Under the pieces are notes generated by a model. That model did not search any database. It had not been told where the DNA came from and worked only from the letters and a program-made list of their open reading frames with translations. From IMG/VR virus record IMGVR_UViG_2671180770_000023: DNA of 10,401 nt; one strand, given 5' to 3'. Position numbers and translations under genes: made by a program. This stretch comes from a virus (lineage: Duplodnaviria > Heunggongvirae > Uroviricota > Caudoviricetes). Each line of letters opens with the position of its first letter. The first letter of the stretch is position 1. Below are positions 1 through 6,108 of the stretch, piece by piece.

Positions 1-183
1 TTACCGCCGCAACCGCTCCGGCTTCTTCCAGTGGTACGTAATTTTTTCCTTCTCCCGATACATCTCAACGCGGCGACGGTAGGCCAGCAACTCAAGAACT
101 CTGGTTCGTATGTTGCGCATATCCACGCCATTAAGCTGGATACCATCACGGCGGATTAATCCCAGTATTTCGGCTTCTGTCAT
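1..183 (-). CDS. Hypothetical small protein (60 aa), basic C-terminus
   Basis: Complete ORF with ATG at 183-181 and stop TAA at 3-1 (window edge). GGGGG SD-like run 4 nt upstream. No family recognised. Confidence 0.4.
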   Translation of the reverse strand: MTEAEILGLIRRDGIQLNGVDMRNIRTRVLELLAYRRRVEMYREKEKITYHWKKPERLRR

Positions 184-216
184 TGTGCCCCCATCGCTCT
201 GATAGTCTGGTGTCGT

Positions 217-438: not shown

Positions 439-981
439 TTACTCGCCTTTCTTCTGTAGCAACTTTTCCGGTACGTTTCCGGTTGTTTCTTTCAAGTAAT
501 CAGCCAGTATCTGTGGGAGGTTGTCGGCAACTCTGGCACTGGCATTACAGGCTTTAACCACTTCCCTTTTAAGCCTATCCAGCATGGCGGGGGTAATCTG
601 TGGGAAGCTCCTTTGCATAGTAAGCGGGAGGCTGTCCATGATTGATGAAATCTGACTCGCCAGCTTTGAAAGCGCGTACAGGCAAAACTCAGTATCAATC
701 ACGTCACCGCGATCGCGCTCGTTTTTAAGTTCCTGCGCCTCCGCCTGTGCTGTCAGTAATCTGATCCTGACTCGTAAGAGTTCATCATCATCAATATCGC
801 CTTTGTCGTTTGTAAGCTGGCTAATTGCATTGTTAACCCTATTGTCTATCACGCTGGCAACATCGTAAAACGCCTCACGGCCTTTACGTTCAACGGGAGT
901 CACTCCCCACTTGTCGAACGCTGTCGCACTTACACGGCAGCTTTTCGCCATGTTTTTTTTGTTCATCAGGTGCGATTTCAT
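439..981 (-). CDS. Terminase small subunit, lambda Nu1 family (180 aa)
   Basis: Central and C-terminal region (LLTAQAEAQELKNERDRGDVIDTEFC...MDSLPLTMQRSFP) aligns well with recalled lambda Nu1 (LTRAQADAQELKNARDSAEVVETAFC...LDGLPLSVQRRFP). N-terminal winged-HTH region is more diverged. True start is uncertain (ATG at 981, 966 or 951); none has a clear SD. Confidence 0.8.
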   Translation of the reverse strand: MKSHLMNKKNMAKSCRVSATAFDKWGVTPVERKGREAFYDVASVIDNRVNNAISQLTNDKGDIDDDELLRVRIRLLTAQAEAQELKNERDRGDVIDTEFCLYALSKLASQISSIMDSLPLTMQRSFPQITPAMLDRLKREVVKACNASARVADNLPQILADYLKETTGNVPEKLLQKKGE

Positions 982-982
982 T

Positions 983-1020
983 AATACACCAACTTAATTA
1001 CTGCTTCAGGTTGGTGTATT
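983..1020 (-). promoter_or_regulatory. 11-bp perfect inverted repeat (AATACACCAAC / GTTGGTGTATT, 16-nt loop) abutting the terS-like start codon
   Basis: Arms at 983-993 and 1010-1020. On the minus-strand mRNA the 3' arm ends 1 nt before the AUG at 981, so any SD would sit inside the stem. Confidence 0.4.
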
Positions 1021-1089
1021 GTTTGCATCTTTCCCTTTTCATTCATAAAGATAGAGCAAACAACAAAACCACCACCACCCCCCTGAAAA

Positions 1090-1158
1090 AGCTCATAAAT
1101 AGCGAAAAACCGCGAGGTCGCCGCCCCGTAACGGGTCCATATGCCGGAAAGGACCCGT
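1090..1158 (-). other. Lambda-type cos site, copy B, inverted (cosN on minus strand = 1126-1115; cosQ-like 1158-1144; cosB-equivalent is divergent)
   Basis: Reverse complement of 1105-1135 is identical over 31 bp to 239-269. The cosQ-like ACGGGTCCTTTCCGG lies outward. Sequence between cosN and the terS start has no R-site-like 8-mers and carries a GGT/G-rich run instead. Confidence 0.65.
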
Positions 1159-1182
1159 AAAAAAAAGCCGGATTTCTCCGGC
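1159..1182 (-). terminator. Rho-independent terminator after the capsid operon
   Basis: On the minus strand: GCCGGA-gaaa-TCCGGC hairpin (1182-1167) followed by T8 (1166-1159), 7 nt past the stop of the 137-aa ORF. Confidence 0.6.
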
Positions 1183-1188
1183 CTTGTC

Positions 1189-1602
1189 TCAGATGGTTTT
1201 CAGTATGCGATCGATGTCGCCGTCATCGCCCTGGTTTCTGCCATCGTATGCCATGCCAGCTGATACGGCTTGCGGGCTGTGCATGTCCATAAAGTTTTCA
1301 AAGGCTGCGGTAAGCTCTGGTGCAACCTTCTGGCGTTCCTGCTCTATGGTCATGCTAAGGATGCTTTTAGCCGTACCAACATCGATACAAGGCACGTTTG
1401 CCATTGCACGCAACAGCGGCTGATAGTCTTTATGCTCATGAAGCGCCATAATCGCATCAGCGCGCGGCTTGTCCTGCTCTTCCAGTTTGTTTAGTTGATA
1501 TACGGCCTCATAGGTTGATAAACCTCTGTCAGCCATTGCCCGCGCTTCGGCTTTAAATTTACTCGCCAGCGGTAGCGTCATGATGCTTTCATTCGTTGCC
1601 AT
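1189..1602 (-). CDS. Hypothetical head-module protein (137 aa), acidic C-terminus
   Basis: Tightly packed after the gpD-like gene. GGGGGA SD 3-4 nt upstream of ATG at 1602. No family recognised; any packaging or connector role is inferred from position only. Confidence 0.6.
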   Translation of the reverse strand: MATNESIMTLPLASKFKAEARAMADRGLSTYEAVYQLNKLEEQDKPRADAIMALHEHKDYQPLLRAMANVPCIDVGTAKSILSMTIEQERQKVAPELTAAFENFMDMHSPQAVSAGMAYDGRNQGDDGDIDRILKTI

Positions 1603-3310: not shown

Positions 3311-3385
3311 TGAAATTGAGTTACGTTGCAAATTATGAAATGATTTACGGCAACAGTAGTCACCATGCTGTTAACCTCGTAAGCA

Positions 3386-3427
3386 AAAGCCCGATAAGCT
3401 TCCTCCTGTACTTATCGGGCTTTTTTT
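3386..3427 (+). terminator. Strong hairpin with T7 tract (plus-strand terminator; weaker in minus orientation)
   Basis: GCCCGATAAG (3389-3398) pairs with CTTATCGGGC (3411-3420), loop 12 nt, then T7 (3421-3427). In the minus direction the hairpin is followed by UUUUGCUU. Confidence 0.5.
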
Positions 3428-3433
3428 GGATAC

Positions 3434-3455
3434 AAAAAGCCGGATTTTCTCCGGC
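3434..3455 (-). terminator. Rho-independent terminator after ssb
   Basis: On the minus strand: GCCGGA-gaaaa-TCCGGC hairpin (3455-3439) followed by TTTTT (3438-3434), 8 nt past the ssb stop. Near-identical to the 1159-1182 terminator. Confidence 0.55.
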
Positions 3456-4360: not shown

Positions 4361-4855
4361 TTATAAAAACGCGTCGCACTCGTCTGTTGTTATTGCGTTA
4401 GTCTGCGTTACCCCCTTAACTTTCCGCGTAATATATTCATGTCCGTAAACTTTTGCGGCAGGCTTCATAGCCTTGCCAAAGTCATTTACGTTTAGCGGTT
4501 TGCTCCTGCCTGCGTATGCCATAAACGCCAGATAGACGCGGTAAAGGCTGTTCCTGGTCGTGTACTTCACTGAATCGCCACCGCCGCCCATCATCAGGCC
4601 GCGTGCTTCCTCCAGAAAATTCAGGAACTGGCAAAACTCAATAACCGGATCCGTCTGTTGCTTTATTGCCAGAGCTTCATCACCGTCACGCTGTTCCAGT
4701 AGTAAAGCCCGTGCCTTCTCAGGGTCGGTAAAGTTCGCCAGCAATCGGCGGATAATGACAGGGATTTCAGCCGCGATCTTTTCCGGTAGCTCCCTGTCTT
4801 TTTCGGCCTCACTGACGATATTGTCGAAACGGAAAATCACGCGACGACGTGCCAC
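4361..4855 (-). CDS. P4-family primase/helicase, C-terminal segment, out of frame with the upstream segment (164 aa)
   Basis: Begins at a GTG. Sequence (A)RRRVIFRFDNIV...DPVIEFCQFL continues the conserved post-NTPase region expected after ...GVW in this family. Overlaps the upstream ORF by 19 nt in a different frame. Confidence 0.7.
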   Translation of the reverse strand: MARRRVIFRFDNIVSEAEKDRELPEKIAAEIPVIIRRLLANFTDPEKARALLLEQRDGDEALAIKQQTDPVIEFCQFLNFLEEARGLMMGGGGDSVKYTTRNSLYRVYLAFMAYAGRSKPLNVNDFGKAMKPAAKVYGHEYITRKVKGVTQTNAITTDECDAFL

Positions 4856-6108
4856 ACCCCGGCCCGTTCGGTGAATATCATCGGGTTATTGTTGGTCGCC
4901 AGCACCACCGCCCTGATTACAGCCGTGAAACGCTTTTCGTATTTCGGGTTAATTTCCACGGGGTCACCGCCCGTGATTTTCTTGATGCCCGTTCCTTCGC
5001 CTGTATATTTCGGCTGGTCAGCCAGGACGATAAGACGACTCCCGACAACCTGCGCACGTCCACCAGCATCATCAAGCGATGTCATTTCAGCGCTTACCGT
5101 GTTCTGTTTCCCTGCCAGAAGGCTGGCTATGTGCGTGAATGTACTTTTACCGCTCCCGCCGTCTCCGGTGGCCTCAATAAACATCTGCCAGTCGTACCGG
5201 TTCGCCATAATCATGTACAGCGCGGCACATATACGCATCATCTTGCGCGGGTCTTTTCCGGCTGCGTGCTTAAGCCATTTATGAAAGTTTGGCGCGTTAT
5301 CGCGGATGTTCTCCCCTGGTGCTGGTGGCGTGTACTCAATGCCGTTGTGCGTGGTGATCCAGTTCTCCGGCGTGTGCGGGGAAAATTCCCCCGTTTTCAG
5401 GTCAAGCGCACCATTGGCGAACGGCAGCAAATCGCCGGACGGCTCGCCCATTGGTTCGGCAATAACTTTTAACGCTTCCACGGCGTTATTGATTACGCGC
5501 TTGCTGAAAGTGGCCCTGTGCTCTGAATAGATCGCCACCATTTCGCGGCTAAGTTCCATTGTGCTGACCGGACACCATACCCCGCCGCGCCATACGTGAA
5601 CGATTTCACTTTCCTGATGCACACAAACGCCATCAAAGCGCTCGGCAAGCAGCTGCGCGCGCTCACTGTCTGCCATTTGTGCCAGTTGCGTATTTTTCTG
5701 CTCCGGCATGGTAAGCCCTGCGGCAATATTTTCACGCTCAGCATTCAGATAGCGCCGCCAGTTTTCACACTTCTGGACGTGCATTCCTTCGTGGTAAAAA
5801 TTTGCGTCCTGAATATCTGCCGCCGCCAGCTTCTGACCAATCTTTTTGGTCTCCACCAAATCCAGTTCTCCGGCCTGGTACAGCCTTACGCGTTTTTTTC
5901 CATCCGGAACAATTTTCAGTGCATCAAGTTCGGCAAGCTGATTTGGCCCAAGCCACACAGGCGGCACATTATCGCCGGATGCGGGGCCGTCCTGCTCCTG
6001 CCACTGTTTTGCATGTGCCCACGCATCACTACCCGCGAAAATAATTACCTCTGTGTCTTTGTGTTTTATTCCGCGTGGTTGTTTTTTTACGTTCGGTGCC
6101 AGTTTCAT
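4837..6108 (-). CDS. P4-family (D5-like) primase/helicase, N-terminal domain plus P-loop NTPase segment (423 aa)
   Basis: Walker A GDGGSGKST, Walker B-like RLIVLAD and KKITGGDPVEINPKYEKRF motif typical of the phage/plasmid primase P4-family C-terminal domain. AGGGG SD 6 nt upstream. ATG overlaps the upstream stop as ATGA. Confidence 0.8.
   Translation of the reverse strand: MKLAPNVKKQPRGIKHKDTEVIIFAGSDAWAHAKQWQEQDGPASGDNVPPVWLGPNQLAELDALKIVPDGKKRVRLYQAGELDLVETKKIGQKLAAADIQDANFYHEGMHVQKCENWRRYLNAERENIAAGLTMPEQKNTQLAQMADSERAQLLAERFDGVCVHQESEIVHVWRGGVWCPVSTMELSREMVAIYSEHRATFSKRVINNAVEALKVIAEPMGEPSGDLLPFANGALDLKTGEFSPHTPENWITTHNGIEYTPPAPGENIRDNAPNFHKWLKHAAGKDPRKMMRICAALYMIMANRYDWQMFIEATGDGGSGKSTFTHIASLLAGKQNTVSAEMTSLDDAGGRAQVVGSRLIVLADQPKYTGEGTGIKKITGGDPVEINPKYEKRFTAVIRAVVLATNNNPMIFTERAGVWHVVA

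Follow-up and report, generated by a model that had tools for sequence, protein, structure and literature searches.

The Inverted Repeat Preceding terS in a PICI-Type Satellite Island as a Probable R2/R1 Pair of Candidate Small-Terminase Recognition Boxes

The perfect inverted repeat that lies immediately in front of terS in the DNA analyzed here (a stretch of 10,401 nucleotides from the IMG/VR virus record IMGVR_UViG_2671180770_000023, called the window below) is probably the R2/R1 pair of candidate TerS recognition boxes in the island's own cosB, as judged by comparison with cos sites of related phages and islands. A transcript crossing the repeat would fold into a hairpin because R2 and R1 are inverted copies of one another. 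The hairpin itself looks like a lineage-specific by-product of the cosB architecture, since the left arm of the repeat is invariant among relatives while the right arm drifts, and R2 persists without a partner in islands from Kosakonia and Superficieibacter.

The Island and Its terS Gene

Judging from its gene content, the window is a TerS-encoding Gram-negative PICI-type satellite of about 10 kb. It has genes for an integrase, a small HTH regulator, and capsid proteins as well as a primase/replication module and a cos site, but neither terL nor tail genes. The minus-strand genes follow each other in the order integrase, D5-type primase (two ORFs), SSB, lambda E-like major capsid protein, D-like decoration protein, scaffold-like protein, a terminator-like hairpin, and terS; no gene for a large terminase, a portal, or a tail was found among the window ORFs. 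A 99.7% identical copy of the segment belongs to an island of about 10 kb in E. coli MS 21-1 (L001), where it adjoins tRNA-Pro between yejM and yejO, and tRNA adjacency is a further PICI feature.

The D5-type primase gene (minus strand) is split into overlapping ORFs, 4837-6108 (423 aa) and 4361-4855 (164 aa), whose products match successive parts of one PHROG profile (positions 84-475 and 477-627); relatives have a single gene of about 600 aa. The split could be due to a frameshift or a sequencing error, or the gene may be a pseudogene. Shortly after the SSB gene, two tandem terminator-like hairpins occur on the minus strand, at 3385-3424 and 3432-3455. The first of them is built on a 14-bp perfect inverted repeat (3385-3398/3411-3424), and the stem of the second, GGCCGGAGAAAATCCGGC, is nearly identical to that of the terminator-like hairpin located upstream of cos.

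The terS product matches Pfam Phage_Nu1 (2e-23) and phrog_57, terminase small subunit (3e-53), and it can be aligned, starting at its first residue, with N15 gp1, lambda Nu1, and phage 21 gp1. Its identity is 49% to TerS of the E. coli prophage L005, 46% to N15 gp1, which is the nearest among the phage proteins compared, 35% to lambda Nu1, and 33% to phage 21 gp1. A PDB sequence search with the island TerS alone gave nothing meaningful. By homology, the island TerS belongs to the Nu1 family and presumably has a winged-helix DNA-binding domain at its N-terminus; its gene directly follows cosB.

The Inverted Repeat and the Layout of the cos Site

The arms 983-993 (AATACACCAAC) and 1010-1020 (GTTGGTGTATT) form 11 of 11 pairs (100% complementarity) around a spacer of 16 nt, and the strand that matters is the minus one. 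On this strand, the 3′ arm (993..983) stops 1 base short of the terS ATG (981) and includes GGTG (990..987), the sole SD-like element ahead of the first terS ATG. The earlier note had described exactly this arrangement, an 11-bp perfect stem with a 16-nt loop and GGUG, 1 nt from the first ATG, and both its coordinates and the pairing were confirmed.

When chance was estimated from dinucleotide shuffles, the expected number of perfect inverted repeats of at least 11 bp with a loop of 3-40 nt was 0.0016 for the intergenic region (982-1188, 207 bp) and 0.094 for the window as a whole. The low expectation (P about 0.001 in the intergenic region) indicates that the repeat is real and non-random. 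A second perfect 11-bp inverted repeat with a 34-nt spacer (2760-2770/2805-2815) is found within the major capsid gene. In RNA, the hairpin formed by both arms is the minimum-energy fold, with -14.5 kcal/mol and z = -4.1 (none of 200 shuffles was equally stable), and it is still present when folded in a 246-nt context. A role of the hairpin 983-1020 as a terminator was ruled out because it is not followed by a T-run.

The coordinates of the elements of the cos site, together with those of the sites used for comparison, are collected in Table 1. Counted in base pairs from the cohesive end, the arm 1010-1020 occupies bp 107-117 and the arm 983-993 occupies bp 134-144. Since it is situated between cosN and terS, the repeat sits where lambda-like phages have their cosB, and the lambda cohesive end and a Nu1-family terS flanking it on the two sides speak for its interpretation as R2 and R1. 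The suggestion in the earlier note that the site is an "island-type cosB" fits well with the presence of the lambda cohesive-end sequence. The segment with the cohesive end matches cos in 88 lambdoid phage records, and no other part of the query matches those records. The GGGTCCT heptamer occupies the same position relative to base 1 as the cosQ heptamer of lambda. The 7-bp cosQ is known to be highly conserved (PMC4669245).

Table 1. Elements of the island cos site and of the cos sites compared with it. Positions in cos are counted in bp from base 1 of the cohesive end.
Element	Window coordinates	Strand	Position in cos	Remarks
terS	439..981	minus	ATG at bp 146	Nu1-family small terminase, 180 aa
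21-codon ORF MNEKGKMQTIHQPEAVIKLVY	981..1046	minus		runs through both arms; stop overlaps terS ATG (TAATG)
R1-equivalent box AGTTGGTGTAT	983..994	minus	bp 133-143	R3 orientation
R2-equivalent box ATACACCAACC	1005..1020 with flank	minus	box at bp 108-118	inverted relative to R3 and R1
Candidate R3 box	1061..1079	minus	bp 48-66	degenerate G/T-rich tract; GGTGGTGGTTT at bp 51-61
cosN cohesive end GGGCGGCGACCT	1115..1126	minus	base 1 = 1126	12 nt, identical to lambda and phage 21
cosQ-like heptamer GGGTCCT	1150..1156	minus		begins 30 nt upstream of cohesive end
Intrinsic-terminator-like hairpin with T-run	1164..1185	minus		between scaffold-like gene (1602..1189) and cos
Island (window)			R3 51-61 (+), R2 108-118 (-), R1 133-143 (+), terS ATG 146	R3 a degenerate G/T tract
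Phage 21			R3 53-63 (+), R2 109-119 (-), R1 153-163 (+), terS ATG 189	boxes annotated in GenBank M81255
Lambda			R3 50-65, R2 109-124, R1 151-166, terS ATG 191
E. coli prophage L005			R3 51-61 (+), R2 108-118 (-), R1 188-198 (+), terS ATG 229

Correspondence with Known cosB Sites

The lambda-like cosB has the order R3-I1-R2-R1, in which R2 is oriented opposite to R3 and R1, and a TerS dimer has been modeled as docking on R3 and R2 across an IHF-induced bend (PMC9026076; PMC4669245). Lambda R1 is reported to be non-essential and to play an accessory role (PMC4669245). In N15, R3 has been mapped experimentally, with scrambling of bp 54-59 reducing the yield about 100-fold, and the "Monarch" group of prophages combines R sequences of the N15 type with a complex R3-I1-R2-R1 cosB (PMC4669245).

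Compared with phage 21, lambda, and L005 (Table 1), the arms of the repeat occupy the positions and orientations of R2 and R1. The Monarch-type locus L091 from E. albertii has its boxes where L005 does (R3 51-61, R2 108-118, R1 188-198), and R2 at bp 108-118 is found also in the Kosakonia and Superficieibacter islands considered below. That the boxes share the layout of phage 21, lambda, and the two Monarch-type loci is an argument for the R2/R1 reading. Another one is that the island cos can be aligned to that of L005 without gaps from bp 1 past the R2 box to about bp 126. Searches of a phage collection with the DNA of the island cos/terS and of the L005 cos returned matches to cosN only, and no phage there shares cosB at the nucleotide level.

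The sequence of the box points to the same relatives. The box GGTTGTTGT(T/A)T occurs three times each in L005 and in the E. albertii loci L091 and L092, and the island R2/R1 box can be written as (G/A)GTTGGTGTAT, with GGTTGGTGTAT being one base away from the Monarch R2/R1 box GGTTGTTGTAT. The latter belongs to the same box family as the N15 R3 box GGTTGTTGTTT (bp 50-60). The one-base difference, along with the fact that the island TerS is nearest to the L005/N15 group, supports the assignment of both arms. Assignment of the L005 cos to the phage 21 type was rejected, as the annotated boxes of phage 21 are of the CATGTCGG type and those of L005 are of the Monarch/N15 type.

The recognition-helix region, as defined by alignment to lambda, reads SVQAFDKWGV in N15 and L005 and SATAFDKWGV in the island. 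Across the three lineages available, which are the only ones on which the comparison is based, helix and box differ together: SVQAFDKWGV is found with ACAACAACC, SATAFDKWGV with ACACCAACC, and GVTAFDKWGI with ACACCCAC(C/T). Such joint differences are in line with recognition of the R2/R1 boxes by TerS.

The counterpart of R3 is less clear-cut. The tract at the R3 position aligns without gaps to R3 of L005 and agrees by hand count with 9 of the 11 bases of the N15/Monarch R3 box GGTTGTTGTTT; with the R2 box of the island itself it shares 7 of 11, the GGT repeats leaving the register ambiguous. The G-run/(GGT)n tract at 1066-1084 varies in length and composition among near-identical islands: L010 has one GGT fewer, L008 has a longer G-run, and L009 is also affected. 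Lambda is reported to be very sensitive to the spacing between cosN and R3.

No site with at most two mismatches to the IHF consensus WATCAANNNNTTR was found at bp 60-110 of the island cos by a consensus scan, which weak or non-consensus sites may escape; the same scan revealed a one-mismatch site at bp 74-86 in phage 21 and in L005/L091 and at bp 79-91 in lambda. Hence, the model of R3/R2 docking across an IHF bend may not apply to the island unchanged. Both the weak R3 match and the missing IHF consensus count against the R2/R1 reading. The centers of R2 and R1 are 27 bp apart in the island compared with 43-45 bp in lambda and phage 21, and as a result of this compression, R1 overlaps the GGTG SD candidate and ends 1 nt before the terS ATG. 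Given the short spacing, R1 may be a relic.

Taken as a whole, the island site resembles the complex cosB of the Monarch group in having the same cosQ and cosN, a candidate R3 box, another one in inverted orientation at bp 108-118, a direct box ahead of terS, and terS immediately downstream. It differs in lacking an IHF consensus between R3 and R2, in the compressed R2-R1 distance, and in the degenerate R3; besides, the window is a satellite island without terL. With the simple cosB of N15, which relies on a single critical R3 (bp 48-59), the island shares one R-box family (GGTTGTTGTTT in N15; GGTGGTGGTTT and GGTTGGTGTAT in the island), but in N15, gene 1 (ATG at bp 89) is not preceded by R2, R1, or I1, while the island has R2 and R1 and an ATG at bp 146.

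Unequal Conservation of the Two Arms

Relatives were represented by 80 IMG/VR loci encoding TerS 81-100% identical to that of the window, which gave 42 distinct sequences from cosN to the terS ATG. A single-protein scan of genome contigs yielded no confirmed relative, and a profile scan of them gave 58 loci, many of which are lambda DNA in unrelated assemblies. The R2 box with its flank, ACACCAACCTGAA (1017..1005), is invariant in all 42 distinct relatives, four third-codon positions of an overlapping small ORF included. The right arm, R1, exists in six versions (the L002-type arm reads GTGGGGATATT). Only 15 of the 42 distinct sequences, or 30 of 79 loci, can form all 11 pairs of the stem; the others form 7-8 of 11, with the mismatches falling mid-stem. 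Residues 6-45 of TerS are nearly invariant, and the R3-position tract is kept in 42 of 42 relatives save for variation in the G-run and in the number of GGT copies. The constancy of R2 and of the N-terminal part of TerS against a drifting R1 favors the interpretation of the arms as protein-binding boxes.

More distant islands lead to the same conclusion. In L089 (Kosakonia, TerS 56% identical) and L090 (Superficieibacter, 54%), the regulator, cos, terS, and the small ORF are arranged as in the window. Both retain ATACACCCAC(T/C) at bp 108-118 as well as the G/T tract at the R3 position, and no inverted partner (R1) for the R2 box was found in either. Consequently, it is not pairing with the 3′ arm that keeps the 5′ arm conserved, and retention of the R3-position tract and R2 without R1 also speaks for the R2/R1 reading. 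By analogy, the variability and occasional absence of R1 fit the accessory role reported for R1 of lambda.

The same pattern could be taken to mean that only R2 is functional and that the right arm, a copy in decay or restored by chance, is kept as a G-rich ribosome-binding site, its symmetry with the left arm having no function. This is consistent with the six forms of R1, all of them G-rich at -12 to -7 (GGTG, GGGGA, GGGA, GGGGG, TGGG, GTGG), with the lack of R1 in L089 and L090, and with the reported dispensability of R1 in lambda (PMC4669245). However, R1 of the window lineage copies the R2 box exactly, including the island-specific base, which would be unexpected under free drift, and we consider this explanation unlikely.

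Alternatively, given its perfect 11-bp symmetry and its place right in front of a gene, the palindrome might be the operator of a transcription factor, either an HTH regulator of the island or an autorepressing TerS, acting on a terS promoter; the terminator-like site at 1185..1164 suggests that terS may need a promoter of its own. Yet no sigma-70-like promoter was detected on either strand of 850-1350, the palindromic symmetry is not conserved, and a center-to-center distance of 27 bp would place the half-sites on different helical faces. This makes a transcription operator the least probable of the explanations weighed here. The earlier note had also allowed for a dimer-binding site within the island cosB. 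A protein-binding repeat in cosB is indeed what the comparisons support, but a palindrome for a single dimer is not, as the arms correspond to two separate boxes, R2 and R1.

The same cosB and TerS are combined with other cohesive ends (GGGCGTCAGGCG, GGGCGGAAGGCG, GGGCGGCTGACG, or GGGCGGCAGACG instead of GGGCGGCGACCT) in L050-L062, L071, L081, and L086, which suggests adaptation to helpers with different right halves of cosN.

The Hairpin and Translation of terS

The first terS ATG is conserved in all relatives and aligns with the start of terS in L090, which is preceded by an SD, and, with an offset of one residue, with the annotated start in the Monarch-type L005; terS is intact (180 aa) in 30 of 30 loci with the perfect stem. 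Judging from these alignments, the ATG at 981 appears to be the true terS start, and a downstream ATG, proposed in the earlier note as the possible real start, is disfavored. The A8 run in AACAAAAAAAACATG (terS codons 8-10; 952-959 in the window) is A7 in L040 and L041, which shifts the frame between the first and the third ATG and thus implies either a homopolymer sequencing error or a form starting at Met11.

The same note had supposed that the hairpin makes terS translation conditional on a helper signal. In such a case, the hairpin would be a selected translational operator, its stem hiding GGUG beside the AUG until a ribosome arriving from upstream, a change in temperature, or a helper-derived factor opened it. 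On physical grounds, such control is conceivable in the window lineage: the hairpin is stable (predicted energies from -14.5 to -17 kcal/mol), GGUG is buried, nothing else ahead of the conserved first ATG resembles an SD, and the predicted probability that the SD (positions -12 to -6) is unpaired is 0.00 compared with 0.2-0.5 in the other lineages. Moreover, the 21-codon ORF ending on the terS ATG could open the stem. It is open in 42 of 42 distinct relatives, with an overlap of TAATG, TGATG, or ATGA, and terS translation might be coupled through it. The small ORF has no SD of its own, and no coding constraint on it could be discerned: variable columns are distributed as 10, 9, and 10 over the three codon positions, and there is 1 synonymous versus 32 nonsynonymous codon variants.

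Comparison among relatives argues against selection for the stem. Among 18 distinct stem-region variants, pairing holds in 77.8% of cells, there are no compensatory changes, and 7 of the 11 pairs only break. The stem is perfect in only a minority of relatives, and other lineages fold at a mere -3 to -9 kcal/mol. L089 and L090 possess the 5′ arm without the 3′ arm and have an ordinary AGAGGT SD before terS. An Rfam scan of 700-1400 revealed no credible family, only chance-level matches on the other strand, and no trigger could be identified. As a control, the annotated R2/R1 region of phage 21, which consists of protein-binding boxes, was folded as if it were RNA; it gives the same kind of hairpin (-37.7 kcal/mol, z = -4.9), showing that such hairpins come with the cosB architecture, in further agreement with the R2/R1 reading. 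At the same time, perfect symmetry in the window lineage is also what would be expected if the RNA stem were under selection there, and this counts against the R2/R1 reading. On balance, a selected translational operator is quite improbable, and the data do not support the hairpin as a selected, helper-responsive switch. Nevertheless, since the hairpin buries the SD at the likely true start, an incidental effect on the TerS level is plausible, and folding predictions indicate that in the window lineage the hairpin may lower TerS translation as a side effect.

A Possible Mode of Action of the R2/R1 Pair

If the arms are R2 and R1, the following scheme can be envisaged. After replication, the winged-helix domain at the N-terminus of the island TerS would contact the R3-position box (bp about 51-61) as well as the inverted one at bp 108-118. 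The bound TerS would then anchor the large terminase of the helper phage, which would nick cosN and package the island DNA. R1 would be a third, accessory box, which now lies against the terS start codon; because of their inverted symmetry, R2 and R1 would make any transcript that spans them fold, and in this island the hairpin would happen to bury a weak SD. The repeat, its place and orientation with respect to the cohesive end, the one-base resemblance of its box to the N15/Monarch box, the pattern of conservation, and the homology of TerS have been observed; binding of TerS to the boxes, use of the R3 tract, and recruitment of the helper TerL are what we infer.

A more elaborate version, which we regard as tentative and rather doubtful, would ascribe to TerS-encoding enterobacterial PICIs a private packaging specificity that arose in very small steps from an N15/Monarch module. 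The box would have changed at a single base, from ACAACAACC through ACACCAACC to ACACCCACC alongside steps at the start of the helix from SVQ through SAT to GVT (two or three residues). The island TerS would thereby pick island DNA and ignore the helper cos while still using the helper TerL. In the E. coli lineage, R1 would have been pushed onto the terS ribosome-binding site, where it would double as a TerS site and as an mRNA brake relieved by the 21-codon ORF.

Related Satellites and Significance

The sibling island L004 was compared with the window over 176 bases, which extend to about bp 40 of cos, and proved 98.3% identical there (region 6001-6676 of L004 versus 981-1260 of the window). 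Beyond this point, it has a different cosB and, in place of terS, a gene for a 146-aa RppC-like protein (PDB 6HLK, 3e-31) with no sequence similarity to the island TerS (E = 1.3). The recombination boundary lies just to the right of cosN. As L004 shares the backbone and swaps cosB together with the adjacent gene, the cosB/terS and cosB/rpp units behave as exchangeable cassettes on one backbone.

Rpp-type PICIs such as EcCICFT073 (Fillol-Salom 2019, PMC6739421) likewise have this backbone and a private cosB beside a lambda-like cosN. In contrast to the full-length TerS of the island, Rpp is a truncated wHTH protein that heterodimerizes with the helper TerS, and only an equivalent of R3 has been proposed for these elements, whereas both R2 and R1 can be assigned in the island. 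TerS-encoding PICIs and SaPIs (E. coli IHE3034 and 18098; Fillol-Salom 2018, PMC6092414) resemble the island in that their own small terminase redirects the large terminase of the helper, but TerS of SaPIs acts on pac sites with headful packaging. TerS-encoding PICIs of E. coli have been noted before (PMC6092414); neither a helper nor a dissection of cosB was found for them in the literature searched. Matches covering at least 80% of the cos/terS segment are present in 495 of 5426 complete E. coli genomes.

R2/R1 boxes of the lambda type are well known, and the new element, an ordinary extension of that knowledge, is such a pair in a TerS-encoding PICI-type satellite. Thereby, likely recognition boxes can be named for a widespread, experimentally uncharacterized class of E. 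coli satellites, and the R-box and recognition-helix variants make up a natural three-step series for studying how small terminases read DNA. More generally, inverted repeats beside terS in cos elements should be read first as R2/R1 boxes and only second as an RNA switch.
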